From an uncultured Spirochaetota bacterium (GTDB lineage: Bacteria > Spirochaetota > Spirochaetia > SZUA-6 > Fen-1364): a DNA stretch of 64,000 nt. Location of the stretch: positions 298,404 through 362,403 of the forward strand of contig CAVUXE010000053.1 in NCBI GenBank assembly GCA_963745235.1. Reading direction: 5' to 3'. The translations under genes were made by a program, and so were the position numbers. The notes under the pieces are model-generated. The model saw only the letters and a program-made list of their open reading frames with translations. It was not told the origin of the DNA and did not search any database. The first letter of the stretch is position 1, and each line of letters opens with the position of its first letter. This document shows positions 14,749-36,446 of the stretch, piece by piece.

Positions 14749-14969
14749 GACTTCCGGCCCGCCCCGGCATCAGGGGTCTCATGTCGACGTGCGCATAACG
14801 CCTCGACGCGAAGTCGCAGCGCGCGCGAAAGACCCAGGATAGGTAATATAGCCTACTCTGAAATTCGGCCTTTGTCCGCTTTTGGCGGCCAGGCAGGTCG
14901 GGATAGTCTGATTTCTGGCGCGAGCTCATGAGTAGCAGGCGCCGGGAGACTTTCGAGAGGAGGCACTCA

Positions 14970-19369: not shown

Positions 19370-19523
19370 CAGTCCACTATACCTTCTGCCTCGGACACGA
19401 AGTATCGGTAATACCACCTATTAGCGAATGCATGTTTTATCCTCTTTCGGCTGCCGGCTGGTCCGTATACCGTGGGACGGTGACGTACGATTCGCACGCT
19501 TGGGCGCAAAGGCACGGAACAGA

Positions 19524-21582: not shown

Positions 21583-22518
21583 ATGAAAGCGGTTCAGATC
21601 TCACAGTATGGCGATGCAGGTGTTCTCACCGTGGCGACGGATGCCCCGAAACCCGCGGTCGGTGACGGCAAGGTCCTCCTGGAGGTGCATGCGGCAAGCA
21701 TCAACCCGGTGGACAGCATGATCCGCCTGGGGTACATGGCGAAAATGGCGCCCCTTTCCTTCCCTGCCACGCTGGGTACGGATGTGGCCGGCGTGGTGGT
21801 GGAGGTGGGGTCCGGCGCGGGGGACTTCAAGAAGGGAGACAAGGTGTTCGGCATGGCGAGCCTCCTGGCGGGGGCCAGCGGCGCGTTCGCCCAATATGCA
21901 ACTGTCCCGGCGGGCCTGCTGGCGCGGATCCCCGCTGGTCTTGACTTCACGCAGGCAGCCGCCCTGCCGCTCACCGGGGTGAGCGCGCTGGAAGTCATCG
22001 ATGAGAAGTTGAAGGCGGGAAAAGGCAGCAGGATCCTGATTCACGGCGGAGCGGGCGGGATCGGGACAATCGCAATCCAACTGGCAAAACACCGGGGAGC
22101 TTTTGTCGCGACCACCGTCTTTGGGGACGCCGTGGACTACGTGCGGGAGCTGGGCGCGGGCACGGTGATCGACTTCCAGAAGGAAGCGTTCGAAAAAGTC
22201 CTGAGCGGATACGACTTCGTCTTCGACACGGTTGCCGGGGAAACCTACAAGAAGTCATTTGCCGTGCTGAAGCGGGGAGGGACCATCATCTCCATGCTGG
22301 AGCAGCCGGATGCGGAGCTCGCCGCGAAATATGGCGTCACGGCCCTTTATCAAATGACGCAGGTCACCACTGCGAGGCTCAATTCCCTTGCGGAGCTTGT
22401 GAAGAACAAGACCGTCACGGTGCACGTGGACCGGGTCTTCCCCGTGGAAAAGGTGAAGGAGGCTTTCCTTGCAAGGGAAGGCGGAAAAGTGCGCGGCAAA
22501 GTCGTTCTGAGCCTATGA
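21583..22518 (+). CDS. NADP-dependent quinone oxidoreductase-like MDR protein
   Basis: AASINPVD, LGTDVAGVV, ILIHGGAGGIG, GKVVL. Confidence 0.9.
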   Translation: MKAVQISQYGDAGVLTVATDAPKPAVGDGKVLLEVHAASINPVDSMIRLGYMAKMAPLSFPATLGTDVAGVVVEVGSGAGDFKKGDKVFGMASLLAGASGAFAQYATVPAGLLARIPAGLDFTQAAALPLTGVSALEVIDEKLKAGKGSRILIHGGAGGIGTIAIQLAKHRGAFVATTVFGDAVDYVRELGAGTVIDFQKEAFEKVLSGYDFVFDTVAGETYKKSFAVLKRGGTIISMLEQPDAELAAKYGVTALYQMTQVTTARLNSLAELVKNKTVTVHVDRVFPVEKVKEAFLAREGGKVRGKVVLSL

Positions 22519-23138
22519 CACGGACGACCCCCGTGTTCACGACCCCCGCTTCGGAGCAGGCGCTCCAGCGGGTGGTCATAGGGCTCAAAGGGCGCAACGT
22601 GGAGGCGGTGATCGTCGACACAGCCGACGAAGCGCGAAGACTCGTGTCGGAGAGGCTGCCCCAGGGGGCGGAGGTCTATTCCGGCAAGTCGAAGACACTG
22701 CAGGACGCCGGGATCATGGACATGGTCCAGGATCCGCGCACCTACGATGCGCTTCGGCCGCGCTTGCTGAAAATGGACCGGCAGACGCAGGCCCGTGAGA
22801 TCCGCAAGCTGATCGCGGCCCCGGATTTCATGCTGGGGAGCGTGAACGCCGTCACCGAAGACGGCATCCTGGTTGCCGCCTCGGCGACGGCAAGCCAGCT
22901 CGGTCCGTACGCCTATACGTCAGGGAAATTGATCCTGGTGATAGGAAGTCAGAAAGTCGTGCCCGACCTGGAAACGGCGCTGCGACGGATCAGAGAATAC
23001 GTTCTCCCATGGGAGGACCAGCAGGTGCGCGCGCTGGTTCCGACCGGATCATTCGTCGGGAAGATCCTGATCATCGAGCGGGAGTGGATCACCGGCCGCG
23101 TGGAGGTGATCCTCGTGCGGAATCCGATCGGGATGTAG
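22515..23138 (+). CDS. LUD (LutC/YkgG-like) domain protein
   Basis: SVNAVTEDG, GSQL, LVIGSQKVVPDL..A..RI motifs. Confidence 0.8.
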   Translation: MTRTTPVFTTPASEQALQRVVIGLKGRNVEAVIVDTADEARRLVSERLPQGAEVYSGKSKTLQDAGIMDMVQDPRTYDALRPRLLKMDRQTQAREIRKLIAAPDFMLGSVNAVTEDGILVAASATASQLGPYAYTSGKLILVIGSQKVVPDLETALRRIREYVLPWEDQQVRALVPTGSFVGKILIIEREWITGRVEVILVRNPIGM

Positions 23139-23167: not shown

Positions 23168-23554
23168 ATGGCTTCACGAGCTGAGTACATTCCCGGCGTC
23201 TGCAACATCGGGGCGGCTGAAATCACCAGACGCATCAGGGGCGGGTGGACAGGGCTTGCCGTGACCGTCGTTCTCTGGGCGGTTTTCTTCGTCTTCCGTG
23301 TCCCCGGTCCCTGGAGATTGTTTCTTTTCCTTCCGGCAGCAACTGGCGCCGCCGGCTTTCTCCAGGCCGCCTTCCATTTCTGCGCCAATTTCGGGATGCG
23401 CGGAGTATTCAACTTCGGCCCCGAGGCGGGAAAGACAGACACCGTAGAGCAGGCTGAGTTCAGGCGCAAGGACCGCAGGAAGGCGGGCCTGATCTCGCTT
23501 GCCTCGGCGCTGATCGGAATTGTGATAGCCGTTGCGGGGTTCCTGGTTCCCTAG
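23168..23554 (+). CDS. Small Cys-containing membrane protein
   Basis: GGAGG RBS; three hydrophobic helices; YIPGVCNIG..EI.RR and FCANFG motifs. Confidence 0.7.
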   Translation: MASRAEYIPGVCNIGAAEITRRIRGGWTGLAVTVVLWAVFFVFRVPGPWRLFLFLPAATGAAGFLQAAFHFCANFGMRGVFNFGPEAGKTDTVEQAEFRRKDRRKAGLISLASALIGIVIAVAGFLVP

Positions 23555-24858
23555 ATGTACCCCACGGCCTTCGCCTTTGCGGCGAGGTCCCCCCGGAAGT
23601 CGGGGTGCGCAACCGAGATCAGCTCTCGAACACGCTCGCGCACCGTGCGGCCGCGGAGACGCGCAATGCCGTGCTCGGTCACAACGATGTCGACGTTGGA
23701 CCTGTGCAGCGTCACGGCGGTGCCTTCGGGGAGTGTAGGTACTATTGTGGATACTTTCCCCCCCTTCGCGGTGCTGTAGCACGCAATGATCGATTTGCCC
23801 GCCCCGTCCAGCCCTTCGACGGAACCGATTGCCGTATCAGATTGACCGCCTGTCCCCGAATACTGGGTCGTGCCAATGGATTCACTGGCAACCTGTCCGG
23901 TGAGGTCGACCATGAGGCACGTGTTGACGGACACCATCCTGGTGTTCTGCCGTATGACCGCGGGGTCATTGACCCATCTCCCGCGCTCGAACTGAACGGC
24001 CACATTGTCATCCAGCCAGTCGTAGAGCTTGCGTGATCCCATCGCGAAGCAGCAGACGAACTTCCCCTTGAGGAGCCCCTTGCACTGGTTGGTGAGGACT
24101 CCCATCTCGTACAGCTCCATCATGGAGTCCACCATCATCTCCGTGTGGACCCCCAGGTTGTGCTTTTCCCGCAGGGCAAGCGCGGCCGCGTTGGGGATTC
24201 CGCCGATTCCCAGCTGAATGGTGCTGCCGTCCTCCACGAGCTCTGCGATGTGTCCGCCGATGGCGAGGTCCGTCTCCGAGGGAGACGGGGAGGGGAGGGA
24301 CGGCACTTCCTGGTCGTGCTCCACAAAAAGGTCCGCGGCGGAGACGTGCACCTGCGTGTCCCCGAACGTGCGCGGAAGCCGCGGATTCACTTCCAGGACG
24401 ACGGTCCCGGCCGCTTCGATGACGTCCTTCTCATAGGTGATCCCGAGGGAAAGGGAGACGTACCCATGGCCGTCGGGCGGAGTGCAGGTGCCAAAGAAGA
24501 CGTCCGGGCTGTGCGCGTGGATCCGGTCAAGGGCGGCGCGATGGAGCATGTTCGGCACGTACGTCACCGTCCCGGTTCCCGCCCGAAGCGCCTCCCGCGA
24601 CCCGGGGGCATGGAACCAGGAGGCAAGCTCGAAGTGCCCGCGCATCTCGGGCCGCATGTAGAAATCATACGGCTTGAGCGTGAGCACGGAGAAGACCCGC
24701 ACATCCTCCACCCTGTCCGCCACGATATGGAATCGGGACATGCAGCCCTGGGGCTCCGAGGCGCATTGCGCCACGATGACGTCGTTGCCGCTTTGAATCC
24801 GGCAGACCGCCGTGTCGATGTCGACGAGCTTCTTTTTGTACTCGTCTTTCCACTGCAT
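23551..24858 (-). CDS. Acetyl-CoA hydrolase/CoA-transferase (4-hydroxybutyrate CoA-transferase-like)
   Basis: QLGIGGIP, LGVHTEM (catalytic Glu), VDLTGQVASESIG, SGTGGQ, VVTEHGIA; RBS AGGAGG before ATG 24858. Confidence 0.92.
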   Translation of the reverse strand: MQWKDEYKKKLVDIDTAVCRIQSGNDVIVAQCASEPQGCMSRFHIVADRVEDVRVFSVLTLKPYDFYMRPEMRGHFELASWFHAPGSREALRAGTGTVTYVPNMLHRAALDRIHAHSPDVFFGTCTPPDGHGYVSLSLGITYEKDVIEAAGTVVLEVNPRLPRTFGDTQVHVSAADLFVEHDQEVPSLPSPSPSETDLAIGGHIAELVEDGSTIQLGIGGIPNAAALALREKHNLGVHTEMMVDSMMELYEMGVLTNQCKGLLKGKFVCCFAMGSRKLYDWLDDNVAVQFERGRWVNDPAVIRQNTRMVSVNTCLMVDLTGQVASESIGTTQYSGTGGQSDTAIGSVEGLDGAGKSIIACYSTAKGGKVSTIVPTLPEGTAVTLHRSNVDIVVTEHGIARLRGRTVRERVRELISVAHPDFRGDLAAKAKAVGYI

Positions 24859-24869
24859 ATTCCGCCTCC

Positions 24870-25880
24870 TTAGAGCATGATCAGGTTTGCCCCGACCGCC
24901 AGGCCCGCGCCGGAAGCGACAAGGACCAGCGCGTCTCCCTTCTTCACCGTGCCTTCGCCCCGGGCCGTGTGCAGGGCCATGGGGACGCATGCGGACCCCG
25001 TGTAACCGTAACGGTCCATGACGCAGGTCGTCTTGCGGACGGGAAGCCCGAGGATCCCCATGACCTCGTGGATGACCGACCTGTTGATCTGCGTGAAAAG
25101 GAGGTGGTCCACCTGCTCCAGGGGCCATCCGGCCTTGTCCAGGAGCCGGTGCACGAGGGGCGGCCAGAGCTTCACGTTGCGGTCTCCCGGGAGCTTCTGC
25201 AGCAGCTCCAGCCCCCAGGTCCCGGCCTCTAGGATCTCCCGCGTGATCGGCGTGCGGGTGCCGCCGGCATAGACGCCGACGTAGTTCCATTGCGTACCGT
25301 CGGCCTTGAGAACTCCTTCCACGTATCCACGGGAGCCATCGCGATCCTCCCGGCGGAGCAGGACCGCGCCGGCCCCGTCAGCGAAGATGGTCCAGCCGAA
25401 CTCGTCGCCCGGCCGCAGGTAGGCCGGCATGTTGTAGACGCCGACCACGAGGGCGTAGCGAATCGAAGGATCAGTCATCATCATCCGTGCCACGGCGTCC
25501 AGCGCCGTCACGAAGCTCGCGCAGGAGGCGCCGACGTCGAAGGCCCCGGATTCCATTTCCCCGCCTTGCAGTCTTCCCTGGAGAAGGATCGAGGTGGCCG
25601 GAGAGATATGCTCAGGGGTGTCCGTGGCGACGACAAAGAGGTGCACCTCGCTTGCCGCCACCCCCGCGTCACGGAGGGCCGCCCGGGCAGCTTTCTCCGC
25701 AAAGTCCGCCGTGGATTCGCGGATGCCGCGCAGCCTCGCGATGTGCCTGGCCCGGATGCCGATTTTCGATTCCAGCCGCCCCGCGTCGAAGGAGATGCCC
25801 GTCAGGCGCGCGAGCTCCTGGTTGTCGATCGGATCACCCGGCACATAGAGCCCGGTCCCGACGATTCGCGCCGTGGCCAT
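24870..25880 (-). CDS. 3-oxoacyl-ACP synthase III (FabH-like) protein with a non-canonical triad
   Basis: DVGASCASF (Cys), FADGAGA; FTQIN in place of HQAN; YGYTGSAC in place of GNT. Confidence 0.85.
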   Translation of the reverse strand: MATARIVGTGLYVPGDPIDNQELARLTGISFDAGRLESKIGIRARHIARLRGIRESTADFAEKAARAALRDAGVAASEVHLFVVATDTPEHISPATSILLQGRLQGGEMESGAFDVGASCASFVTALDAVARMMMTDPSIRYALVVGVYNMPAYLRPGDEFGWTIFADGAGAVLLRREDRDGSRGYVEGVLKADGTQWNYVGVYAGGTRTPITREILEAGTWGLELLQKLPGDRNVKLWPPLVHRLLDKAGWPLEQVDHLLFTQINRSVIHEVMGILGLPVRKTTCVMDRYGYTGSACVPMALHTARGEGTVKKGDALVLVASGAGLAVGANLIML

Positions 25881-25891
25881 ACGCCCTCCTT

Positions 25892-27025
25892 TCAATCCAG
25901 CCAGTCGGAGAACCCCCGCGAAAGGTAGCCCCCGATGGCTTCCACCGCCGCACGCGCGTTCAACGGAGTCATTTCGAAGGCGGCTTCGATGCCGGAATAA
26001 TGGGCTATGCCGAGGAGGAACTCGATTGCCGTCCCCTGGTCGGCATCACCGTTGCCTTCGGGGTTCTTTCGGTACCCGTCCACGAAATGGCCGTAGTATT
26101 CCCGCACGGCCGCGGGGAGCACGAACTCCGCCTCGCGCACGATGGGATAGCAGTCCCTGTCCAGGGTGAGGTACACGAGCCAGAGCCACAGGCCCCGCAG
26201 CTCGCGCTCCAGCCGGTTGAGGGGAGAGCCATCGCTCGCCGCTATATTGCGGGAGATGAAGGAGCGCACGTCGTGGCTCAGCATGCGGATGAGCTCCGCG
26301 AAGTACGTCTCCTTGGACTCGAAGTGGCTGTAGAAGGCGCCGACGGACAGCTCGGCCAGGTCGGTGATCTCGTGGATATTCGTCTCGAAGAAGCCCTTTT
26401 CGCCAAAGAGCCGCTTGCCCGAACGGAGGAGCCGCTCGCGGGCATTCGCCTCCAGCGCGACGGGGTGGGGAGTGGCGGTCCCCCCGAAAACCCTGGTGGC
26501 GTCGAAGGTCATTCCGCGGAAAAGGCCCCTGCAGAGGATCTCGGGGAGGTCCTCGAACCGAATGACCACGCCGTGAAGGGCGCTTCGAATGGCGCAGAAG
26601 CGCAGTCCACCGAGAGCAAACAGATACTCGGCCAGCCCGATCTCCCGTCCGAGGGCGAAGCTCAGGCTCTGCTGGTAGATCGCCATCAGCCTTCGTTCGT
26701 ACTCGAAGAAGCGGTATTGCCCTTCACGAAACACGGCGACGAGCCGCGAGTGGTCGCAAGAGAAGCTGACGACCGCCCGGGCAAGAGACTGGATGCGATC
26801 TGTCTTGCACGAGCCTCCCGGCGCGGACACGGCGTTTCGGATCATTTGCAGCACCTGCTCGAGGATCCTTCGAAAGAGCGCCTCCTTGCCGTCGAAATAC
26901 CGGTAGAAAACGCCATTGGAAAGCCCGGCTCCCCGACAGATGGCGGCGACCGACACGGTTCCGTACCACTTATGCGAGAACAGCTCAACTGCTGACTCGA
27001 TCAAGCGATCTTCGGTGCCCGGCAT
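25892..27025 (-). CDS. Tandem double TetR-family regulator
   Basis: Two HTH motifs: VAAICRGAGLSNGVFYRYFDGKE and IHEITDLAELSVGAFYSHFESKE. Confidence 0.9.
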   Translation of the reverse strand: MPGTEDRLIESAVELFSHKWYGTVSVAAICRGAGLSNGVFYRYFDGKEALFRRILEQVLQMIRNAVSAPGGSCKTDRIQSLARAVVSFSCDHSRLVAVFREGQYRFFEYERRLMAIYQQSLSFALGREIGLAEYLFALGGLRFCAIRSALHGVVIRFEDLPEILCRGLFRGMTFDATRVFGGTATPHPVALEANARERLLRSGKRLFGEKGFFETNIHEITDLAELSVGAFYSHFESKETYFAELIRMLSHDVRSFISRNIAASDGSPLNRLERELRGLWLWLVYLTLDRDCYPIVREAEFVLPAAVREYYGHFVDGYRKNPEGNGDADQGTAIEFLLGIAHYSGIEAAFEMTPLNARAAVEAIGGYLSRGFSDWLD

Positions 27026-27040
27026 CAGACCGTCCGATCC

Positions 27041-27183
27041 GTGAGAGCCGATTCACTCACAACCGTCATCCTATCCTATCTATTGCGCAAAAACAATAGA
27101 AAAGTTGCCATTGTTAGATCAAATAGAGCTTGACAACTCGACATGTGTGCAATAAGAATGGTGAGAGGCGATTCGGTTGTCAC
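27041..27183. promoter_or_regulatory. Divergent control region with a sigma70 promoter and candidate operators
   Basis: TTGACA at 27130, N17, TAAGAA; GTGAGAG.CGATTC at 27041 and 27161; inverted repeat TCTATTG-N8-CAATAGA at 27079-27100. Confidence 0.6.
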
Positions 27184-27204
27184 TGGAGAAAAGGGGCACC
27201 GCAG

Positions 27205-28212
27205 ATGCATGTCGGCATCATTGGGCACGGCACCTGGCTTCCATCCACTTTCATGAGCGCGGAGGATATCTCTGCGGCAACCGGCATTCCACAAGATGTC
27301 ATCGCCTTGAAGTTCGGCGTCAGGCGCAAGCCGGTTTCCTCTCCCGGTGAGACCACCGCCGCCCTGGGTCTCCATGCCGCGCGACGCGCCCTCGCTGACG
27401 CGGGTATTTCCGGCTCAGAGGTGGACCTGGTGATCTGGTGCGGCGCACAGCACAAGGACTATCCGTGCTGGCTTGCCGGCCTTTATGTAGCAGACCAGAT
27501 TGGCGCGAAAAACGCGTGGAGCTTCGACATGGAGGCCATGTGCGGTTCCATGATGGCCGCGCTGGATATCGCAAAATCCCTCATCATTGCGCGGGGGGAC
27601 CTGGAAACGGTGCTTCTCGTTTCCGGGTACAGGAACAATGATCTCATCGACCTGAAAGAGCCTGCCACCCGGTTCATGCTCGACATCGGATCCGGCGCCT
27701 CGGCCCTGGTCCTGAGAAAGAATGCCGGACGAAACGCGGTCCTCGCTTCGGCATTTCGCGGGGACGGATCCTTCTCCGAGATGTGCGTCGTACCGACCCT
27801 GGGCTCGAGGGCATGGCCTCCGTCCCCGGGGGATGAATCGCGCGCCCATTTCATCGTGCCTGACGAGGAAGCGTTCAAGAAGAAGCTGAACGATCTGACT
27901 CTTCCCAACTTCTATGCGGTCATCCGGGAGTCTCTCCAGCGCTCGGGGGCCCGGGCAATAGACTATCTTGCGATCCTTCATTTCAAACGCAGCGCTCATG
28001 GCGCGGTGCTCAAGGAGCTCGGCCTCGGGCCGGCCAACACAACCTACCTGGAAGACTACGGCCACCTGGGGCAGAACGACCAGGTCCTCTCCCTGGAGCT
28101 GGGGCTGGCCGCAGGCAAGGTTCGTGACGGCTCCACGGTGGTCTTTGTGGGCGCGGGCCTGGGATTCGTCTGGGCAGCGACAGTGATCACGTGGGGACCC
28201 TTCAAGGAATAG
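27205..28212 (+). CDS. 3-oxoacyl-ACP synthase III family protein (Cys-His-His)
   Basis: DMEAMCGS, LAILHFKRSAH, EDYGHLGQND, GAGLGFVWAA. Confidence 0.88.
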   Translation: MHVGIIGHGTWLPSTFMSAEDISAATGIPQDVIALKFGVRRKPVSSPGETTAALGLHAARRALADAGISGSEVDLVIWCGAQHKDYPCWLAGLYVADQIGAKNAWSFDMEAMCGSMMAALDIAKSLIIARGDLETVLLVSGYRNNDLIDLKEPATRFMLDIGSGASALVLRKNAGRNAVLASAFRGDGSFSEMCVVPTLGSRAWPPSPGDESRAHFIVPDEEAFKKKLNDLTLPNFYAVIRESLQRSGARAIDYLAILHFKRSAHGAVLKELGLGPANTTYLEDYGHLGQNDQVLSLELGLAAGKVRDGSTVVFVGAGLGFVWAATVITWGPFKE

Positions 28213-28220
28213 GAGACGTC

Positions 28221-28958
28221 ATGCGTCTGGATGGAAAAGTGTGCATGGTCACCGGCGGCGCCCGGGGGATCGGCAAAGGGGTGGTGGAGACATTCGTCAG
28301 GGAAGGGGCTCGGCGCGTCTGGGCCCTGGACGTGAACGAGAGCGAGCTCGCCGCGCTTGAAAAAGGCGCCCTTTCCGTCACGGGCGTCGCCGTGGATGTG
28401 ACGAGCTCCGCCGCGGTGAACGCCGTTGTGGAGCGCGTCAGGACCGAGTCAGGCGGAATAGACGTCCTTGTGAACAACGCCGGCATAACGCGGGATGCAA
28501 TGATCCACAAGATGAGCGACGCTGATTGGGATGCCGTGGTAAACGTCAACTTAAAAGGCGTGTTCTTCGTGACGCGCGCGGTGGCGCCGCTCATGATGGA
28601 GGCGGGCCGGGGATCCATTGTCAGCATCAGCTCCATCGTGGGCCTTGACGGCAATATCGGGCAGACCAACTACGCCGCGACAAAAGGCGGCGTTGTCGCA
28701 ATGACAAAGGGATGGGCCAGGGAGTTCGTTCGAAAGGGAGCAAAGATACGCGTCAACGCGGTGTCTCCCGGCTACACCCGCACTCCCATGATTGCCTCTG
28801 TGCCTGAGAAGGTCCTGGAGCCCATCATCGCCAGGACACCGCTGGGAAGACTCGCGGAGATCCGCGACATCGCGCATGCGGTCCTTTTTCTTGCCAGCGA
28901 TGAGTCTGAGTTCATCACGGGCCAGGTACTCCGCGTGGACGGCGGCCTGGTCCTGTAG
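28221..28958 (+). CDS. fabG: 3-oxoacyl-ACP/acetoacetyl-CoA reductase (FabG/PhaB-like SDR)
   Basis: TGGARGIG, NNAGITRD, GQTNYAATKGG. Confidence 0.85.
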   Translation: MRLDGKVCMVTGGARGIGKGVVETFVREGARRVWALDVNESELAALEKGALSVTGVAVDVTSSAAVNAVVERVRTESGGIDVLVNNAGITRDAMIHKMSDADWDAVVNVNLKGVFFVTRAVAPLMMEAGRGSIVSISSIVGLDGNIGQTNYAATKGGVVAMTKGWAREFVRKGAKIRVNAVSPGYTRTPMIASVPEKVLEPIIARTPLGRLAEIRDIAHAVLFLASDESEFITGQVLRVDGGLVL

Positions 28959-28996
28959 AGCCGGGGACGCCCAGGCGCCCCAAAAGGAGGAGCGAT

Positions 28997-30202
28997 ATGA
29001 GGAAGGCTTTCGTGGCTGTCGCATGCTTTGCGCTGCTTGCAGTCGCAGCGTTCGGGCAGGGCGTCATCAAGCTGGGTGCCAACTGGCCCCTTGCTGACGT
29101 GAGCGGTCTGGAGTGCTCCAAGGCAGCCCAGCTTGCGGTAGATGAGATCAACAAGGCCGGGGGCGTCCTGGGAAAGCAGCTCCAGCTGGTGGTGGTGGAT
29201 GACGAGGGGAAGGGAGACAAGGGCGTGGCCGCCATAGAGAAGCTCGTCACCGTGGACAAGGTGGACGTCCTGCTGGGCGGGATTGCTTCCGGCGTCGCCG
29301 TGGCCCAGGTCCCGACACTGAAGAAGTACCAGATGGTCACTGTCGCCACAGGGGCGGCTGCAAGCGCAAGCGTGGAAAAAGCCCTTGGACCGAGCCCCGG
29401 CTCCGACTGGTATTTCCATCTCCATCCGTGGGACTACGACCAGGGCCAGAGCTACTATGAGGGCTGGGACGCCATCCAGAAGAAGTACCCGAACGTGGTC
29501 ATCAGGAGGATCTTTCTTGCCTACGAGGAGGGAGCTTTCGGAAAGTCGTCCTTCGATGCTTCCAAGGCCCTGTTCGGCTCCCGCTACACCTTTGACGGCG
29601 CTTCGTTCAAGAGCGCCCTCCAGGGCGGCTCGGACTATTCCTCCGTGCTGGAGGCGGCCAAGGATTTCAATCCGGACCTGTTCCTCTGGGCCGGTTACGC
29701 GCAGGATGCGCTGCCCCTCCTGGAGCAGTCCAAGGCAATGAAGTTCTCCCCGCCCATCTACCTCGGGGCTCCTCCCGCATGGCCCGTTGACATGGGGAAG
29801 TCTCCCCTTGCGGAAGACATCATGCTGTACGGCATGTGGGCGCCATCGATCAATGACATCAGCCCGGCGAGCAGGAAGTTCTACGACGCCTACGTTGCCG
29901 CAACCGGCTCCGCGCCGACAAGCTACTTCGCCGCCCTCTCCTACAGCGCTGTCTACATCATCGCTGACGCGGTGAAGCGCGCCGGTGGAACAGACGCGGC
30001 CAGGCTCATTCCCGCGCTGGAAAAAACGAGGTATGTGTCTCCCCTCGGTCAGACAATCACTTTCACGCCCTCGAACATCATCAAGCACCAGGGCATCAAG
30101 AACCAGAAGATCCTCCAATGGCAGGACGGCCGCCAGGAAGTGATCTGGCCGTTCGAAGTCCAGTCCCGGGCCCTCGTGTATCCCCTTCCCCCGTGGAAGT
30201 AG
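28997..30202 (+). CDS. LIV-type (HAAT) ABC substrate-binding protein
   Basis: Signal peptide; AVDEINKAGGVLGKQLQLVVVDD. Confidence 0.9.
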   Translation: MRKAFVAVACFALLAVAAFGQGVIKLGANWPLADVSGLECSKAAQLAVDEINKAGGVLGKQLQLVVVDDEGKGDKGVAAIEKLVTVDKVDVLLGGIASGVAVAQVPTLKKYQMVTVATGAAASASVEKALGPSPGSDWYFHLHPWDYDQGQSYYEGWDAIQKKYPNVVIRRIFLAYEEGAFGKSSFDASKALFGSRYTFDGASFKSALQGGSDYSSVLEAAKDFNPDLFLWAGYAQDALPLLEQSKAMKFSPPIYLGAPPAWPVDMGKSPLAEDIMLYGMWAPSINDISPASRKFYDAYVAATGSAPTSYFAALSYSAVYIIADAVKRAGGTDAARLIPALEKTRYVSPLGQTITFTPSNIIKHQGIKNQKILQWQDGRQEVIWPFEVQSRALVYPLPPWK

Positions 30203-30203
30203 C

Positions 30204-31160
30204 ATGAGGATCGTTGTGACCCGGCCGCGCGTCGGGCCGGGTCGGATGTGGCAGGTCGTCCTCTGGACCGCCCTTGCGGCGGCGGGGACGGCCGCCGTCC
30301 TTCTGTGGAAGCCGACAGCCCTCGTGTACGGCGTTCAGCGCGCCGGCCTCTACGCGGCGGTTGCCATTCCCATGGCCCTCGTCCTCGGCATCGTCCACAT
30401 CGTCAACCTCGCCCACGGAGAGCTCATGATGGTGGCCGCCTACCTTGCCTACTTTGCCGCCCGTCTCCTCGGCCTGGACCCCTTCGTGGCCCTTGTTCCC
30501 GTGGCTCTCGTCATGGCTGTCCTGGGCCTCCTGCTGTACCAGGTTACCATCAGGCATTCCCTCAAAGCGCCGGAGCTCAACCAGCTGATCCTCACGTTCG
30601 GGCTCGGGATTGCCCTGAGCCAGATGGTGAACCTCCTGTTCACCTCGCAGTCGTGGAAGCTCTCCCTGGACTATGTGTCGGCTTCCGCGACCGTCGGAAA
30701 CATCAGCTTCGGAGTGTTCGACTTCGTCTATGCAGGCGCCGCCATCGCGATCGCGCTGGGGCTGCGGCTTTTCCTGACCCGCACGCGTCTCGGGAAAGCC
30801 GCCCTCGCGGTGGGCCAGAATCCGCGTGGGGCGGCAATCGTCGGGATCGATGTCGGCAGGACCTATGCATTCGTTTTTGCCCTGGCCGTAGGCTTGATCG
30901 GCGCCGTGGGCTCGATCTTCCTCGCGAAGCAGGCGATTTTCCCCCTGGTGGGCGGCCCGTACACCATGAAGTCCTTCTGCCTCGTGGCCATGGCGGGGGT
31001 GGGCAACATCGTCGGCATCCTTTACTGCAGCCTGGCCCTGGGGCTGTCGGAAAGCATCATCAACAGCATCAGGGGCTACGCGGGATGGTCGAACGTGGTT
31101 TTCTTCGCGATCATCATCGTGACCATCCTGGTCCGCTCCTTCCGGGAGAGGAAAGCATGA
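30204..31160 (+). CDS. livH: HAAT ABC permease (LivH-like)
   Basis: IVNLAHGELMM, TRLGKA, GID motifs. Confidence 0.85.
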   Translation: MRIVVTRPRVGPGRMWQVVLWTALAAAGTAAVLLWKPTALVYGVQRAGLYAAVAIPMALVLGIVHIVNLAHGELMMVAAYLAYFAARLLGLDPFVALVPVALVMAVLGLLLYQVTIRHSLKAPELNQLILTFGLGIALSQMVNLLFTSQSWKLSLDYVSASATVGNISFGVFDFVYAGAAIAIALGLRLFLTRTRLGKAALAVGQNPRGAAIVGIDVGRTYAFVFALAVGLIGAVGSIFLAKQAIFPLVGGPYTMKSFCLVAMAGVGNIVGILYCSLALGLSESIINSIRGYAGWSNVVFFAIIIVTILVRSFRERKA

Positions 31161-32110
31161 CCCTTGCCGTCAGGCGGCTTCTCCCCCTCGCCGTTATTGC
31201 AGTCGCTGTCCTCTTTCCTTTCGTCTCCGGCCCCTACCCCCTTGCCGTCGCGCAGAGCATCCTCATTTACATGGCCCTGGCGGTGAGCTGGGACATGCTG
31301 CTGAGGTCGGGCCAGATCTCCTTCGGCATCGCCGGCTTTTTCGGCATTGGCGCGTATGCCTCCGCCATAACCACGCTCGCCGTCCGCGCATCGCCCGTCA
31401 TCTCCATCCTGCTTGCCGGGGCATGCTCCGCCGGAGTCGCGTTTGTCCTCGGCTTCGTCATCCTACGACTCAGGAAGGTGTATTTCGCCATCACGACGCT
31501 GGCGCTCGCGGAGATCTTTCGGGTGATCGTCCACAACTGGGGAGACTTCACCGGCGGTCCGGAAGGCCTTGTCCTTCCGTCCCTGATCTTCAAGGGAGAT
31601 TCGCGGGCCCTCTTCTGGATAGCCCTCGGCGGCGTGCTCCTTGCCTGCGGCTTGTCGGCGTGGTTTCAGCGCTCCCGGTTGAGGTTCGCCCTGACGGCAA
31701 TCCGCAACAACGAAGTGAGCGCGCGCTCAAGCGGGATCGACATATTCAAGTACCTGATGATTGCCTTCGTGACGTCCTCTTTCATCCAGGGGATTGTCGG
31801 CGGCATCCAGGTCCAGCTCTATGGCTACGCTTCGCCGGATTCCGTGTTCGACGCCAACTACACCCTGCTCCCCCTGGCGATGGCGTTGCTGGGGGGGATC
31901 TACAGCACGCCCGGTCCGGTGCTTGGCGCTGTCCTTCTGGGCGTTGCCGCGGAGTACCTCAAGCTGAAGATCCCGTACGGGCACCTCGTCGTGTACGGGA
32001 TCATCATCGTCCTGGTCATTCTTCTTCTGCCGGATGGGCTCTACGGCCAGTACCGCAGAAGCGTCAGGGACAGGGCCCGCACGGCGCGCGGCGGAACGGC
32101 CCATGCCTGA
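31157..32110 (+). CDS. livM: HAAT ABC permease (LivM-like)
   Basis: GQISFG, YFAITTLA, TGGPEG, AIRNNE; ATG 31157 overlaps the livH stop. Confidence 0.85.
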   Translation: MTLAVRRLLPLAVIAVAVLFPFVSGPYPLAVAQSILIYMALAVSWDMLLRSGQISFGIAGFFGIGAYASAITTLAVRASPVISILLAGACSAGVAFVLGFVILRLRKVYFAITTLALAEIFRVIVHNWGDFTGGPEGLVLPSLIFKGDSRALFWIALGGVLLACGLSAWFQRSRLRFALTAIRNNEVSARSSGIDIFKYLMIAFVTSSFIQGIVGGIQVQLYGYASPDSVFDANYTLLPLAMALLGGIYSTPGPVLGAVLLGVAAEYLKLKIPYGHLVVYGIIIVLVILLLPDGLYGQYRRSVRDRARTARGGTAHA

Positions 32111-32822
32111 CCTCCAGACCTTCGGGCTGACCCGGCATTTCGGGGGACTTGTCGCGGTCAACAACGTTTCCTTCACCCTCGATTGCGGGGAGATACTGGG
32201 GGTCATCGGGCCAAACGGCGCGGGGAAGACCACGTTCATCAACCTCGTGTCAGGCGTCTATGCGCCGTCGAGCGGGCGCATCCACTTCCAAGGGCGGGAT
32301 ATCACGGGCCTGCCGGCCCACAAGCGCGCGCAGATGGGCATTTCCCGAACATTTCAGATCATTCACCCCCTGGAGAACCTCGACGTGCTGGAAAACGTGA
32401 TGCTGGGGTTCATCTTCAGCCGGCGCATGGGACTGAGAGAGGCGCGACGATCCGCGGAGACGTTGTGCGGCTCTCTCGGACTGGGAGACCTGTCCCGGGA
32501 TGTCTCCCAGATCACGATGCTGGAAACCAAGAAGATGGAGATTGCCCATGCCCTCGCAAGCGGGCCTTCCATCCTGTTCCTGGACGAGGTCATGGCCGGG
32601 CTCAACGTCGACGAAACCAGGGAGATCGTCCAGCTGGTCCAGAGGGTGACGAGAGAGCACAACATCGGAGTGGGTGTCGTGGAGCACGTCATGAGCGTGA
32701 TCCGGGACCTGACTCACCGCGTGATCGTCCTGGAGGCTGGAGAGATCATTGCCGCCGGACCCTACGAGGAGGTTGCGAAGAATCCGAGGGTCATCGCTGC
32801 CTACCTGGGAGGGGCCGCATAG
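32103..32822 (+). CDS. livG: HAAT ABC ATPase (LivG-like)
   Basis: FGGLVAV, GPNGAGKTT, LFLDE, AYLG. Confidence 0.9.
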   Translation: MPDLQTFGLTRHFGGLVAVNNVSFTLDCGEILGVIGPNGAGKTTFINLVSGVYAPSSGRIHFQGRDITGLPAHKRAQMGISRTFQIIHPLENLDVLENVMLGFIFSRRMGLREARRSAETLCGSLGLGDLSRDVSQITMLETKKMEIAHALASGPSILFLDEVMAGLNVDETREIVQLVQRVTREHNIGVGVVEHVMSVIRDLTHRVIVLEAGEIIAAGPYEEVAKNPRVIAAYLGGAA

Positions 32823-33746
32823 ATGCTCCAGATCAGGGATTTGGAGGTCAGCTATGGGAGGATCCCCGTCCTGCGGGGCGTGAGCCTGACAGTCGGCAAC
32901 GAATCCGTCGGGTTGTTCGGACCGAACGGGGCAGGGAAAACCACGCTGATCAACGCGATCATGGGCTTTCTCCGTCCGCGGGCCGGCACAGCCACGGTGG
33001 ATGGTCAGGACCTCACGGCGCTGCGCACGCACCAGATTGCCAGGGCAGGGATCGCTCTTGTGCCGCAGGAGCGCGAGCTTTTCCCCGGCATGTCCGTTGG
33101 AGACAACCTGGAGCTCGGCGCTGTCTACATCCCTCGCGCGCGGGCCGTCATGGAGAAGCAGAGGGAAACCGTGCTCGGGCTGTTTCCCGTTCTGCGGGAG
33201 CGCTACAGGCAGCTTGCAGGGACCCTGTCCGGAGGGCAGCAGCGAATGGTCGCCATTGGCCGGGCGCTCATGGCGAATCCGAGGCTTCTCATCCTGGACG
33301 AGCCGTCTCTTGGTCTCCAGCCGTCAATCGTGTCAGAGGTCTTCGAGAAGCTCGCGCAGCTCAAGGCAACGGTCTCCATCCTCGTCACTGAGCAGAACGT
33401 CAGGGAAAGCCTGCGGGCCGTGGACCGCGGGTATGTGCTGGAGAACGGGTCAATAGCCCTCCAGGACAGCGCGGAGGGATTGTCGAACAACCCGCACGTG
33501 ATCGCGTCATACCTGGGGATCTGGCAATGCCGAGCAACGGGACCACGAAGGGCGTCGTCGAAGCCGGGGGAGCGCGCATCTCGTACGGGGGGCGCGGCAC
33601 GGGTGTTCCGGTTGTGCTCATACACGGAAACACCGGCTCGAGCAGGTGGTTCCAGCGGGTCATGGACGTGCCTGGCTGCAGGACGATTGCCCTCGACATG
33701 CCGAACTTCGGACACTCGGGTCCACTGCCTCACGAGCCCTCCATAG
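32823..33746 (+). CDS. livF: HAAT ABC ATPase (LivF-like); natural end probably at ~33524
   Basis: GPNGAGKTT, LSGGQQRM, ILDEPSLGL. The conserved end SYLGI is followed by TGG (33522-33524) where a stop is expected; read-through overlaps the next gene by 220 nt. Confidence 0.85.
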   Translation: MLQIRDLEVSYGRIPVLRGVSLTVGNESVGLFGPNGAGKTTLINAIMGFLRPRAGTATVDGQDLTALRTHQIARAGIALVPQERELFPGMSVGDNLELGAVYIPRARAVMEKQRETVLGLFPVLRERYRQLAGTLSGGQQRMVAIGRALMANPRLLILDEPSLGLQPSIVSEVFEKLAQLKATVSILVTEQNVRESLRAVDRGYVLENGSIALQDSAEGLSNNPHVIASYLGIWQCRATGPRRASSKPGERASRTGGAARVFRLCSYTETPARAGGSSGSWTCLAAGRLPSTCRTSDTRVHCLTSPP

Positions 33747-34327
33747 ACCGCTACGCAGACGCCGTGACGGCTTTCCTCAGCGCGCTGGGGATAGACAGGC
33801 CGGTCCTGGTGGGGCATTCCCTCGGAGGGGCGGTGACCATCTCCCTTGCCGTTCGCGGTCCGACGCTTTTCCGCGGGCTCATGCTGGTGGATTCCGCCGC
33901 GCCCTCCGGCCTGGCGACGCCTGAAGCTCGCTATCCCTTCATCGAATCGATGCGGACCAACCGCGAGATTCTGGCAGCGGCGCTTTCCGCGGTGGCGCCG
34001 ACCCTGAAAGACCAGGGCTTCTTCGCCGCCCTCGTGGATGACGCAACGCTGATGGCTGCCCCCGCCTGGATCGGGAACGCCCGCGCCCTGAGCCTCTTCG
34101 ACTATCGGGGCAGGTGCGGCGCCTTCACCGCTCCCGTGCTGGTGGTGTGGGGGCGAAAGGATGTGATCGTCACGGAAGCCATGGCCCGGGAAACGGCCCA
34201 GGCCTTCCCGAACGCCCGGCTCCTGGTACTGGAAGGGGTGGGCCATTCCGTGGTGGCGGAGGATCCTCCCTGCTTCGTGAGCCTCCTGTCGGATTTCGTA
34301 TCCGGATTGGGAAAGGATGACGCATGA
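33527..34327 (+). CDS. Alpha/beta hydrolase (esterase/depolymerase-like)
   Basis: LIHGNTGSS oxyanion loop, GHSLGG nucleophile, WGRKD, GH. Confidence 0.88.
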   Translation: MPSNGTTKGVVEAGGARISYGGRGTGVPVVLIHGNTGSSRWFQRVMDVPGCRTIALDMPNFGHSGPLPHEPSIDRYADAVTAFLSALGIDRPVLVGHSLGGAVTISLAVRGPTLFRGLMLVDSAAPSGLATPEARYPFIESMRTNREILAAALSAVAPTLKDQGFFAALVDDATLMAAPAWIGNARALSLFDYRGRCGAFTAPVLVVWGRKDVIVTEAMARETAQAFPNARLLVLEGVGHSVVAEDPPCFVSLLSDFVSGLGKDDA

Positions 34328-35587
34328 GCCGTGTCAGCATTATCGGAGCGTACAACACGAAGTTCGGCAGCTTCGTGAGGCGAAACAAGGAGACGGGAGA
34401 AGTGGCTGACCTGGCTTCCCTCTACGACCTGATGATGGAGGCCGGGCGGGGCGCGCTGAAAGATGCGGGGGTCTCAGGCAAGGACGTGGACGGTGTGTGG
34501 GTCGGCAGCTGCGCGCCAGGGCTGTTCGCCAACCAGGAGCACGTTGCCGCTATCGCGCCCGAGATCGATCCCGAGGGGCTTCGTTTCAAGCCAATGACGC
34601 GCTGTGAAGACGCCTGCGCGTCGGGCTCGGTGGCCCTCTACAACGCGGTGTACGCCGTGGAATCAGGCCGGGCGCGGATTGCCCTGGTGCTCGGCGTGGA
34701 AAAGATGAACCTCCTCGATACCCGGGGCGTCACGCACGCTCTGGCTACCTGCTCATACTGGCCCGAGGAAGGCGCCCGGGCAGTCACGTTCCCTTGCCTC
34801 TTCGCGGAGTACGCAAAGGGCTATGCCGCCCGCCACGGGCTTTCAGGGGATCTTCTCAGGCGCATGCTCGCCTCCGTCACGGCCCTCGCGTATCGCAACG
34901 GACTGGACAACCCCCTGGCCCATTTCGGGAGGGGAGGCCCGTCGGAGAAGATGCAGCTGCTGACCGCGCAGTCCGTGCTGGACCTTCCCGAGGAGAGGAA
35001 CCCCGTGATTGCCGAGCCTCTCCGGCTGCACGATTGCTCCCTCATATCCGACGGCGCTGCCGCCGTTGTGATCATGGAGAGCCGGGCAGCCGCGCGCCGG
35101 GGACGCGCGGCAGTGGAGATCTCCGGCATAGGGCACGTCAACGAGCGCATTGCGCTCTCCGCGCGGGAAGGCATGCACGAGCTGACCGCGGGCAAAGAGG
35201 CGGCGCGCCGCGCGTTCGCGGAGGCCGGCGTCGGCATCTCGGACGTGCAGATTGCCGAGGTCCATGACTGCTTCACGATCAACCAGCTCCTGTGCACCGA
35301 GGCGCTCGGCCTGTCAGCGGACGGCCGCGCGGGTTACGACTACATGGAGGGCAGGTTCGGCAGAGAGGACGCGGAATGCTGCGTCAATCTCTCCGGCGGC
35401 CTGAAGGCGAAAGGGCATCCGGTGGGAGCCACCGGCGTCTCCATGCACGCCCTTGTCTACCGGCAGCTCATCGGGACAGCCTGCCGGGGCCGCTCCCGGC
35501 CGGGGGCAGCCGGAGATCGGCGTGACCTTCAATGTCGGCGGATCAGGCGTCACCAACTGCGTCTCAGTCCTGCGAAGACGAAGGTAG
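34324..35587 (+). CDS. SCP2-type thiolase, frameshift near 35480
   Basis: EDACASG, EVHDCFT, KGHPVGATG. The C-terminus FNVGGSGVTNCVSVL ends at TAG 35585-35587 in the shifted frame. Confidence 0.88.
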
Positions 35588-35606: not shown

Positions 35607-36446
35607 TCAGTAGTACTCGATTGACCTGTACTCGACTTCAACGGCCGTGTACGGTCCCTTGCCCTGGAGCTCCTTGGTCACTTTTCTGATCCAATTCCCC
35701 GCCGCGTCCAGTGAGTACTCATACTGGCGTTTCCACACGAGAGCTCCGTCCGCGGAGTATTTCTCTGCCTCTGTTTCGTTGCCCTGGGAGTCGTAGGTCG
35801 ATCTGCGCTCGAGAACATTCGTTGCCCCGTATTGCTCGGAAACCCTCAGCCTGCCCTCACTGTCATACGTGTAGGCGCTGTCCTCCGAGATTGCAGCGTT
35901 GGAGTCGTACGCTATCCACTCCCGGGGGTGCCCGTTGCTGTCATAACTGTAGACCCATTTGCCGAGTGACGAGCCATCCGAGGCGAAGTGCTCTATTTCG
36001 ATGTTCCTGCCCCGCGCATCGTATCCGTACACGGATTGTTCCTGGAGGGAACCGTCAGGGCCATACGTCGCGGACGTTGATTTCACGCCGGCAGCCGAAT
36101 AGGTGTACACCAGCTTCAGGGACGTCTGCCCGTCCGCAAGCCTGCACTCGGTGGAGGTCCTTTTTCCCGGGCTGTCGTAGGCGAAATGGAAGGTCCACAG
36201 GGGCAATCCGCTCGAGCTGAAATGCAGCTCTTCGGTCTTTTCTCCCGCAGGGGTGTACCAGGCCGTCTGGACCGGCCGCCTCCTGGCTTCCGACGCTGCA
36301 CCGGCTTTCTGCAGCACCTCCGCTCTCTCCACGGCCACGCTTTTCACCTTGCCCTGCAAGCCGTCTTCCTCCCAGCTGCTTGGCTGGGGGAAGACGAGGG
36401 CGGCCGCTGCGAGGCCAATGACAGTCACGAAGATGGTGGTCTTCAT
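35607..36446 (-). CDS. Exported YD-repeat protein
   Basis: Signal peptide, LQGKVKSV, about eight ~26-aa repeats (YxYDxxG...DG), C-terminal GNW...RSIEYY. Confidence 0.8.
   Translation of the reverse strand: MKTTIFVTVIGLAAAALVFPQPSSWEEDGLQGKVKSVAVERAEVLQKAGAASEARRRPVQTAWYTPAGEKTEELHFSSSGLPLWTFHFAYDSPGKRTSTECRLADGQTSLKLVYTYSAAGVKSTSATYGPDGSLQEQSVYGYDARGRNIEIEHFASDGSSLGKWVYSYDSNGHPREWIAYDSNAAISEDSAYTYDSEGRLRVSEQYGATNVLERRSTYDSQGNETEAEKYSADGALVWKRQYEYSLDAAGNWIRKVTKELQGKGPYTAVEVEYRSIEYY

Follow-up and report, generated by a model that had tools for sequence, protein, structure and literature searches.

A divergent gene cluster with two non-canonical KAS III proteins and a fused double TetR regulator in an uncultured Spirochaetota bacterium: a candidate acyl-CoA catabolic module

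We describe a cluster of twelve genes found in a stretch of 64,000 nucleotides (the window) from contig CAVUXE010000053.1 of an uncultured Spirochaetota bacterium (assembly GCA_963745235.1). The host genome was assembled from a metagenome: it has 5.85 Mb and is 85.7% complete. The window has a GC content of about 63% and for its proteins the closest relatives carry the labels Spirochaetia, Spirochaetota or Rectinemataceae. The cluster lies in positions 23551–35587 and is organized in two divergent operons, as determined by Pfam and NCBIfam profile searches and a map of the open reading frames (ORFs). Among its products are a fused double TetR regulator, a CoA-transferase and two proteins with the KAS III fold, which we call KAS1 and KAS2. 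We give about an even chance to the reading that the cluster is a substrate-inducible catabolic module for acyl-CoA, independent of acyl carrier protein (ACP). A first-pass annotation, made from the sequence alone, had listed a CoA-transferase, two KAS III-like enzymes, a short-chain dehydrogenase/reductase (SDR), an importer, a hydrolase and a thiolase under TetR control in this region; every one of them is found there.

The two KAS proteins are the most peculiar members of the cluster. KAS1 (24870–25880, minus strand, 336 aa) and KAS2 (27205–28212, plus strand, 335 aa) both have the Pfam domains ACP_syn_III and ACP_syn_III_C. Their active-site columns were read by alignment to the FabH of the same genome; HMMER alignments to the FabH of PDB entry 4ryb gave the same result. 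At the Cys-His-Asn columns KAS1 has Cys120, Thr263 and Tyr293: this Cys-Thr-Tyr arrangement is found in all 51 orthologues compared, six of them from Holophagaceae. Five residues past Tyr293 there is an invariant Cys298. KAS2 has Cys113 as nucleophile, Leu in the His column followed directly by a His (His259, in the motif LHFKRS) and His287 at the Asn column, an arrangement shared by all 81 orthologues. His287 and Asp292 are part of a motif G-H-x4-D: 79 of the 81 orthologues have it, in the form YGHxxxxD, and G-H-x4-D also occurs in 65 of a set of 81 diverse full-length representatives. Among 27 diverse members of the KAS2 family His287 and Asp292 are invariant and His259 nearly so, and in some distant members a Ser replaces the nucleophilic Cys.

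Both proteins are clearly separate from the housekeeping FabH. With the FabH model TIGR00747 (cut-off 292.1 bits) KAS1 scores 154.5 and KAS2 111.3, while the FabH of this genome scores 358.5 bits. The true FabH and the ACP genes of the host are found on other contigs. Among the cluster genes in 23551–35587 there is no ACP, FabD, FabF, FabZ, acyl-CoA dehydrogenase or polyhydroxyalkanoate (PHA) synthase, and the twelve genes leave no space between them for ACP, FabD, acyl-CoA dehydrogenase or PHA synthase. A control with the PP-binding family found no ACP domain in Haloferax volcanii. A dependence on ACP is unlikely, because the ACP genes lie elsewhere and this control was negative. The first-pass annotation had concluded that the cluster does not carry out ordinary fatty-acid synthesis: the triads, the FabH scores, the location of FabH and the ACPs, and the homologues on haloarchaeal plasmids described below all agree with it.

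In the PDB the best relative of KAS1 is FabH (E 2e-37). KAS2 matches FabH with E 2e-23, DpsC with 4e-11, CerJ with 1e-10 and ChlB3 with 1e-6. In PMC9573744 the triad of ChlB3 is given as Cys113-His296-Asp301, common to CerJ, that of DpsC as Ser-His-His, and the C116 and H295 mutants of CerJ are described as inactive. Only 9z38 was aligned directly to KAS2: chain 9z38_A, named '3-oxoacyl-ACP synthase-3', shares the G-H-x4-D motif. Judging from these residues both KAS proteins are non-canonical, and KAS2 looks like one of the acyl-transferring enzymes with this fold. Two other identities were considered and rejected. HMG-CoA synthases do not fit, as the KAS proteins show by eye no catalytic Glu and score higher with FabH models. 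Nor does pimelate synthesis of the BioZ type: its triad is not present.

The order of the twelve genes is strongly conserved. In the leftward operon the double TetR gene comes first, followed by KAS1 and the CoA-transferase; in the rightward operon the order is KAS2, SDR, binding protein, two permeases, two ATPases, alpha/beta hydrolase and thiolase. The genes are separated by 0–40 nt or overlap. Seven relatives have long contigs: in six of them the order of all twelve genes is identical, with 60–92% identity, and the seventh has ten genes in the same order before its contig ends. The genes which flank the cluster in the window are not common to the loci of the relatives. A survey with a threshold of E<=1e-135 for KAS2 orthologues found them in 10 of 25 genomes of the same family; in the 16 genomes examined from the order's other families there were none. 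When one genome of each species was scanned, 247 KAS2 relatives were obtained, of which the best 80 loci were kept: 52 are of Spirochaete type and 27 are labelled Holophagaceae in their records. Across these best 80 loci the CoA-transferase, double TetR and KAS2 are found together as a core. KAS1 lies between CoA-transferase and TetR in all 42 Spirochaete-type loci which hold both. The thiolase is present in 23 of the 28 loci complete from CoA-transferase to hydrolase, downstream of the hydrolase in 15 of them and upstream of the CoA-transferase in 8. The SDR is more variable: of 44 Spirochaete-type loci, 26 have it between the KAS2 and binding-protein genes and 18 lack it.

Holophagaceae belong to a different phylum and keep the same core in 27 loci, including that of Geothrix fermentans DSM 14018, next to a HAAT importer of their own which is not orthologous. 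KAS2 (72–79% identity between Spirochaetota and Holophagaceae) and the CoA-transferase (71–80%) are the most conserved proteins. A KAS1 of the Cys-Thr-Tyr type travels with them, with only 35–40% identity in Holophagaceae; in the five Holophagaceae genomes with no KAS1 within 10 kb it is found in all cases 12–15 kb away on the same contig. One Holophagaceae region of at most 16 kb contains TetR, KAS1, thiolase, SDR, an unknown gene, binding protein, ATPases, permease, MaoC, CoA-transferase, double TetR and KAS2. Around the core of Geothrix lie genes for a binding protein, ATPases and a permease, together with an alpha/beta hydrolase, a type-B carboxylesterase and a KAS1-type gene. After the cluster of G. 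fermentans (14315–15947 of the locus stretch) there are also an MbnB/TglH/ChrH-family gene and a DUF2063/NGO1945-like gene, a pair typical of peptide-modification systems.

The cluster is thus a unit kept by selection. The opposite idea, that these genes are mere neighbours with no common function, deserves hardly any credence: it is contradicted by the synteny and by the operators described below. An identical order is maintained between flanks which are not shared, the genes are tightly spaced or overlapping, both promoters have the same operator and the same functional set appears rearranged in different phyla.

KAS2 belongs to a wider family, NF005308/PRK06840, which bears the name '3-oxoacyl-ACP synthase', with a score of 415.3 bits over a cut-off of 315. 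KAS1 is not a member, as it has 140.2 bits with this model, and all its NCBIfam matches are below their cut-offs. The family is small: among 1.84 billion representative proteins there are 86 clusters (at 50% identity) with E<=1e-30, against 5115 with E<=0.001. None of 14 model genomes has a member of NF005308 over the cut-off. The ESM Atlas gave only generic '3-oxoacyl-ACP synthase' clusters, and a plasmid search with KAS1 gave two uninformative matches. We searched the literature and found no description of this cluster or of the KAS2 family, nor an assay of any of its members. A KAS2-like protein with 38% identity and the motifs HVKKS and GHxxxxD is listed under the source names Klebsiella pneumoniae, K. 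variicola, K. michiganensis and Kosakonia; a metagenome scan with this type of member gave no matches.

Distant KAS2-like proteins (32–39% identity) are found in other lineages beside a HAAT importer and an enzyme which activates an acid. Ten haloarchaeal plasmids have a KAS2-like gene; they come from brine, solar salt, sediment and cultures, and their sequences retain the signature residues in an alignment made without the Bacillus homologue. Salarchaeum has, in this order, MaoC, alpha/beta hydrolase, AMP-ligase, helix-turn-helix regulator, binding protein, two ATPases, two permeases and, in the last place, the KAS2-like gene. Halobaculum has a similar order plus an SDR. In Bacillus sp. N5-665 we find TetR, AMP-ligase, MaoC, KAS2-like, an NHL beta-propeller and a HAAT importer. 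A metagenome scan with another KAS2-like member gave five loci. Two metagenome contigs that resemble Desulfobacterales have a ligase, a HAAT importer and a KAS2-like gene, with either a double-TetR-like gene or a hydrolase; a third contig has a CoA-transferase and a KAS2-like gene, with no importer match within reach. In summary, the HAAT importer accompanies the KAS2-like gene in nearly every version seen and an enzyme which converts an acid to its CoA thioester in every one of them, with hydrolase, MaoC, SDR, thiolase and KAS1 as add-ons. This recurrence of importer, acid-activating enzyme and hydrolase in five lineages, with MaoC, SDR or thiolase in some of them, speaks for the catabolic logic that had been suggested in the first-pass annotation.

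The presence of MaoC brings in another possibility. An imported alpha,beta-unsaturated or 3-hydroxy acid, such as a hydroxycinnamate of plant origin released from its ester, would be activated with CoA and hydrated, and KAS2 would split the resulting 3-hydroxyacyl-CoA by a retro-aldol reaction to acetyl-CoA and an aldehyde. The degradation of the steroid side chain, in which a MaoC hydratase works with a thiolase-fold aldolase, offers an analogue. The Bacillus operon has MaoC translationally coupled to the KAS2-like gene and no dehydrogenase; MaoC also adjoins the cluster in Holophagaceae and Salarchaeum, not all Spirochaete loci have the SDR, and esterase-type hydrolases are found nearby, including the type-B carboxylesterase of Geothrix. 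However the Spirochaete cluster, that of the window included, has no hydratase, and the cluster has no enzyme to handle an aldehyde. Furthermore the conserved Cys/Ser nucleophile with His and Asp suggests a covalent acyl-enzyme, which a retro-aldolase does not need. We consider this route very unlikely.

The first-pass annotation placed the cluster under TetR control, but the regulator is not a simple one: it has two fused TetR units in 377 aa (25892–27025, minus strand), with TetR_N domains at residues 8–54 and about 195–250. The region between its gene, tetR2, and KAS2 has 179 nt and contains a promoter and two predicted operator copies in the same orientation. Copy 1 (TGAGAGCCGATTCA, 27042–27055, plus strand) lies beside the start of tetR2 and is an exact match of the pattern in the genome. 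A predicted sigma-70-like promoter of the rightward operon (27130–27159, plus strand) has the form TTGACA-18-AAGAAT, with 10 of 12 consensus matches. Copy 2 (TGAGAGGCGATTCG, 27162–27175, plus strand) comes right after the -10 box, about 30 nt before the start codon of KAS2. The operator has 14 bp and is not palindromic: its consensus is T-G-A-G-A-G/A-N-Y-G-A-T-T-C-A/G, with sites of the TGAGAGnnGATTCA type.

Two copies in the same orientation are found in 69 of 71 orthologous intergenic regions, in both phyla, which supports the proposal of TetR control with a predicted operator just after each promoter. One copy lies at a median distance of 45 nt from the start of tetR2, the other at a median of 33 nt upstream of that of KAS2. 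By eye, and uncounted, most of the orthologous regions listed also have a TTGAC box before copy 2. The exact pattern has just two further sites in the 5.8-Mb genome of this species. One is on contig C10, 33361–33374, between an ISAzo13-type transposase gene and an unknown ORF of 258 aa; the other is inside an MttB-family gene. As members of a regulon both locations are implausible and we judge them to be due to chance; therefore the predicted regulon is the cluster itself. Loose matches elsewhere amount to 10 in the remaining 1.23 Mb. The two half-sites, TGAGAG and TGAATC, are unlike each other, which is consistent with a fused regulator whose DNA-binding domains also differ. The PDB matches of the double TetR include Mce3R (9b7y), with E 2e-8 and a similarity restricted to one helix-turn-helix region. 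Mce3R is also a double TetR and is reported to bind a non-palindromic sequence (PMC11667970). In Bacillus sp. N5-665 an operator-like TAAGAGGTGATTC is present at 7454–7466 of the locus stretch, right before the single-TetR gene which heads the operon with the KAS2-like gene; it could be a related operator or a product of chance.

The other enzymes of the cluster have more familiar relatives. The CoA-transferase (23551–24858, minus strand, 435 aa) belongs to family I and to the 4-hydroxybutyrate CoA-transferase (AbfT) type. It contains the family domains AcetylCoA_hyd_C (PF13336, 193 bits) and AcetylCoA_hydro (PF02550), and matches the 4-hydroxybutyrate CoA-transferase 3gk7 of the PDB over residues 1–428 with E 9e-100. 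Its best NCBIfam match is the butyryl-CoA:acetate model TIGR03948, with 242 bits, below the cut-off of 675. The SDR (28221–28958, plus strand, 245 aa) is similar to FabG and PhaB: it has 215 bits with adh_short_C2, and the models for FabG and acetoacetyl-CoA reductase are just under their cut-offs.

The importer holds the full HAAT set, all on the plus strand. The binding protein (28997–30202) has a signal peptide and 169 bits with Peripla_BP_6. It reaches only 59 bits with the LivJ model, which has a cut-off of 477, and its nearest relatives in the PDB bind Leu/Ile/Val, with only E 4e-18. The permeases are LivH-like (30204–31160) and LivM-like (31157–32110), both with the domain BPD_transp_2. 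The ATPases are LivG-like (32103–32822) and LivF-like (32823–33524, 209 bits with the LivF model); both have ABC_tran and one of them BCA_ABC_TP_C.

The hydrolase (33527–34327, plus strand, 266 aa) is a cytoplasmic serine hydrolase of the alpha/beta fold with the motif GHSLGG and the domains Abhydrolase_1 and Abhydrolase_6. Its top NCBIfam match is NF050089, an intracellular short-chain PHA depolymerase, with 103.6 bits (E 1e-29) against a cut-off of 300, and this match covers only residues 15–148, positions 6–135 of the 288 in the profile. Matches to PHA depolymerase, PcaD and AcoC-like models are all far below their cut-offs. The best PDB match is an esterase (5egn, E 3e-20), followed by a polyhydroxybutyrate (PHB) depolymerase. 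In meta-cleavage-product hydrolases the His is followed by Trp. Here it is followed by Ser, and this identity was rejected.

The thiolase (34324–35587, plus strand) is of the SCP2 type, has the domains Thiolase_N and Thiolase_C_1 and measures 420 aa in the orthologues. Cys98, the motif His314-Asp-Cys316-Phe (HDCF) and His365 are invariant in 28 orthologues; as the catalytic Cys, His and HDCF motif are maintained, the family is predicted to be a working thiolase. The truncated copy of the window has 333 bits with NF005704, against a cut-off of 412. Among solved structures the nearest is the thiolase in the archaeal complex 6esq, with E 1e-56 for the single sequence and 2e-73 for the profile. 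The profile also matches 9vbo_E, described as 'KAS III domain protein', and PhlC is a distant match. A prediction of a complex between the thiolase and KAS1 gave a score of 0.00, which speaks neither for nor against binding.

These accessory enzymes are the basis of the substrate suggested in the first-pass annotation. Esters or oligomers of (R)-3-hydroxyalkanoates, such as PHB debris from dead cells, would be imported, hydrolysed, activated with CoA, oxidised by the PhaB-like SDR and split by the thiolase, while KAS2 would be an accessory, perhaps for cleavage of oligoesters with CoA. Each accessory has a counterpart in the PHA cycle: the hydrolase in PhaZ, the SDR in PhaB, the thiolase in PhaA and the MaoC of Holophagaceae, Bacillus and haloarchaea in PhaJ. 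The intracellular depolymerase is the top NCBIfam match of the hydrolase and a PHB depolymerase is second in the PDB. The carriers also come from suitable places: PHA is common in soil, peat, wetland, brine and sediment habitats, the labels of the metagenome runs with cluster sequence are soil, peat and wetland, and the haloarchaeal carriers have the sources given above. Nevertheless we think that this substrate is improbable. The family matches are below threshold and the depolymerase match is restricted to the N-terminal half. The oxidation step is dispensable, as 18 of 44 Spirochaete-type loci have no SDR, and the minimal clusters, formed by importer, ligase and KAS2-like gene, have no hydrolase, SDR or thiolase. 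Moreover neither KAS1 nor KAS2 has a necessary role in this scheme, although KAS2 is, together with the CoA-transferase, the most conserved protein.

The copy of the cluster found in the window has two frame defects, so that the first-pass description of thiolase and importer is correct as to their presence and incomplete as to their state. In the thiolase there is a one-base insertion near 35472–35478, and its last 30-odd residues are in another frame, up to 35587. In LivF the stop position reads TGG and the frame continues to 33746, while the orthologue stops at the equivalent of 33524. We aligned to the cluster contigs from four metagenome runs, of soil and peat (X1–X4); among the sequencing runs listed with cluster sequence there was none of RNA. 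All four have G to A at 33523, which gives a TAG stop for LivF. Both X3 contigs and the X4 contig have one base fewer at 35472 or 35478; X1 and X2 do not cover this site. Since the LivF stop and the thiolase frame are intact in independent metagenome contigs, the genes are intact in natural populations. The defects of the window are either assembly errors or a strain variant. Assemblies of several relatives likewise have split genes, in their case TetR, KAS1, LivM, hydrolase and thiolase.

Some features outside the cluster may be mentioned. Upstream, in 19428–21117 (plus strand), there is a GH43 glycoside hydrolase divided into two overlapping ORFs, the catalytic domain in 19428–20396 and GH43_C2 in 20179–21117; the split is a frameshift resembling that of the thiolase and probably an assembly indel. 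Just before the cluster (21583–23138, plus strand) lie a zinc-type alcohol dehydrogenase (MDR) and a LUD-domain protein, which the orthologous loci do not share. Directly after it (35607–36446, minus strand) there is a protein of 279 aa with a signal peptide and a weak RHS/YD-repeat similarity, whose adjacency is not conserved in the relatives.

The catabolic module that we favour would work as follows. When there is no substrate, the double TetR would bind the asymmetric operator of 14 bp after each promoter and keep both operons off, until an inducer, probably an acyl-CoA intermediate, relieves the repression. The HAAT importer would bring in a small carboxylic acid, either free or as an ester or lactone, and the cytoplasmic hydrolase would free the acid where needed. 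The AbfT-type CoA-transferase would then form the CoA thioester of the acid at the cost of acetyl-CoA. KAS2 would act on this thioester: as KAS2-like proteins are constantly paired with a CoA-activating enzyme, their substrate should be the CoA ester of the imported acid. The most likely reaction would be a thiolase-like cleavage of a C–C bond through an acyl-Cys intermediate, with acyl transfer as the alternative. KAS1 and the SCP2-type thiolase would take the carbon on to acetyl-CoA. The FabG-like SDR where present, or the MaoC hydratase in other lineages, would prepare the 3-oxo or 3-hydroxy group. If KAS2 cleaves like a thiolase, the minimal clusters of importer, ligase and KAS2 would be a complete route for a 3-oxo acid, which MaoC and SDR would widen to enoates and 3-hydroxy acids, and hydrolases to esters.

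Other reactions of KAS2 are possible. The Ser variants and the CerJ-like triad support an acyl transfer; the DpsC-like pair of His residues and the KAS2–SDR order support a decarboxylative priming. The latter leads to a biosynthetic or scavenging explanation of the whole cluster: an imported short or branched-chain acid would be converted to its CoA ester, KAS2 would prime it with a malonyl thioester as DpsC does, and the SDR and a MaoC dehydratase would continue towards a lipid or a storage polymer. The succession of KAS2 and SDR then corresponds to condensation and ketoreduction, and the Cys/Ser-His-His arrangement is like that described for DpsC in PMC9573744. The solved relatives of the binding protein with affinity for Leu/Ile/Val, the butyryl-CoA:acetate model as best NCBIfam match of the CoA-transferase and the minimal clusters with only importer, ligase and KAS2-like gene point in the same direction. 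We nevertheless find this explanation unlikely. The same type of operon is present on haloarchaeal plasmids, and the Haloferax volcanii control has no ACP domain. None of the versions seen has an enoyl reductase, an ACP or a malonyl-transferase, and their companions are a thiolase, hydrolases and a CoA-transferase of fermentation type. KAS1 lacks both decarboxylation residues. In Bacillus the order ligase, MaoC, KAS2-like has no reductase: hydration followed by cleavage fits it better.

The favoured catabolic module has its own difficulties, which weigh against it and should be considered together. KAS2 stands directly before a FabG-like reductase, the classic biosynthetic order of condensation and reduction. 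DpsC, which appears to be the nearest analogue of its active site, is a priming condensing enzyme, and over its whole sequence KAS2 has a better E-value with FabH than with DpsC, CerJ or ChlB3. The proposal that residues of KAS2 occupy the positions of those in CerJ, ChlB3 and DpsC comes from motif spacing and alignment offsets, not from a residue-level alignment. Members with Ser instead of Cys would suit acyl transfer better than thiolase chemistry. The importers of the two phyla are not orthologous, so that their substrates may differ, and the hydrolases of different lineages are only 26–27% identical. Finally, no fused forms of KAS2 were found among proteins of 588–2000 aa, which is weak evidence.

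With more reserve we may extend the proposal to all KAS2-like proteins of NF005308. They would be an unrecognised catabolic branch of KAS III in bacteria and archaea, always associated with a HAAT importer and a CoA-activating enzyme, whose Cys/Ser-His-Asp site breaks a C–C bond of the imported acyl-CoA or uses CoA to open an ester or lactone. The members from Spirochaetes and Holophagaceae would form a multi-enzyme unit with a Cys-Thr-Tyr paralogue and an archaeal-type thiolase. This extension is tentative and we consider it more doubtful than the module itself. KAS III enzymes are the textbook initiators of fatty-acid and polyketide synthesis. Here we have a small and sharply defined subfamily with a different active site, tied to importers and CoA activation in anaerobic Spirochaetes and in the other lineages described above. 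If it really cleaves or transfers acyl groups in catabolism, it would represent a new type of reaction for this fold and would name a carbon source of abundant anaerobes of peat and sediment. The cluster also provides a clear example of a double TetR fusion paired with a predicted asymmetric operator. As Geothrix fermentans DSM 14018 carries the core and is in culture, the question can be put to a direct test.

Among known systems FabH (TIGR00747) is the best overall PDB relative of KAS1 and KAS2, with the same fold, Pfam domains and nucleophilic Cys. It differs in the remaining residues: where FabH has His-Asn, KAS1 has Thr/Tyr and KAS2 a displaced His together with His/Asp; besides, the two KAS genes have no ACP context. 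DpsC, CerJ and ChlB3 resemble KAS2 in their Cys or Ser nucleophile. H296 and D301 of ChlB3 may be compared with H287 and D292 of KAS2, and the second His of the Ser-His-His of DpsC resembles the second His of KAS2. However they are distant in sequence and work in antibiotic biosynthesis with ACPs or sugars, while KAS2 is found with an importer, CoA activation and a thiolase.

The archaeal complex of acetoacetyl-CoA thiolase, HMG-CoA synthase and DUF35 protein (6esq) and PhlACB (5m3k), the complex of diacetylphloroglucinol synthesis, have a known architecture, in which an SCP2-type thiolase is encoded with KAS III-fold proteins, as it is here. The HMG-CoA synthase of 6esq is a weak match of both KAS1 and KAS2. 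The difference lies in DUF35, for which the cluster has no gene, and in the KAS proteins, which are FabH-like and not HMG-CoA synthases. The ato-type utilisation of short-chain acids and the PHB cycle follow the same logic as the cluster: uptake, transfer of CoA from acetyl-CoA, an optional interconversion of 3-hydroxy and 3-oxo forms, and thiolysis. The cluster departs from ato-type systems by its AbfT-type CoA-transferase, by an ABC transporter instead of a secondary one and by a conserved core with two non-canonical KAS III proteins. As to regulation, Mce3R of Mycobacterium tuberculosis has, like our regulator, two TetR units in one chain, and the non-palindromic site reported for it may be compared with the operator predicted here; the regulon and the phylum are different.

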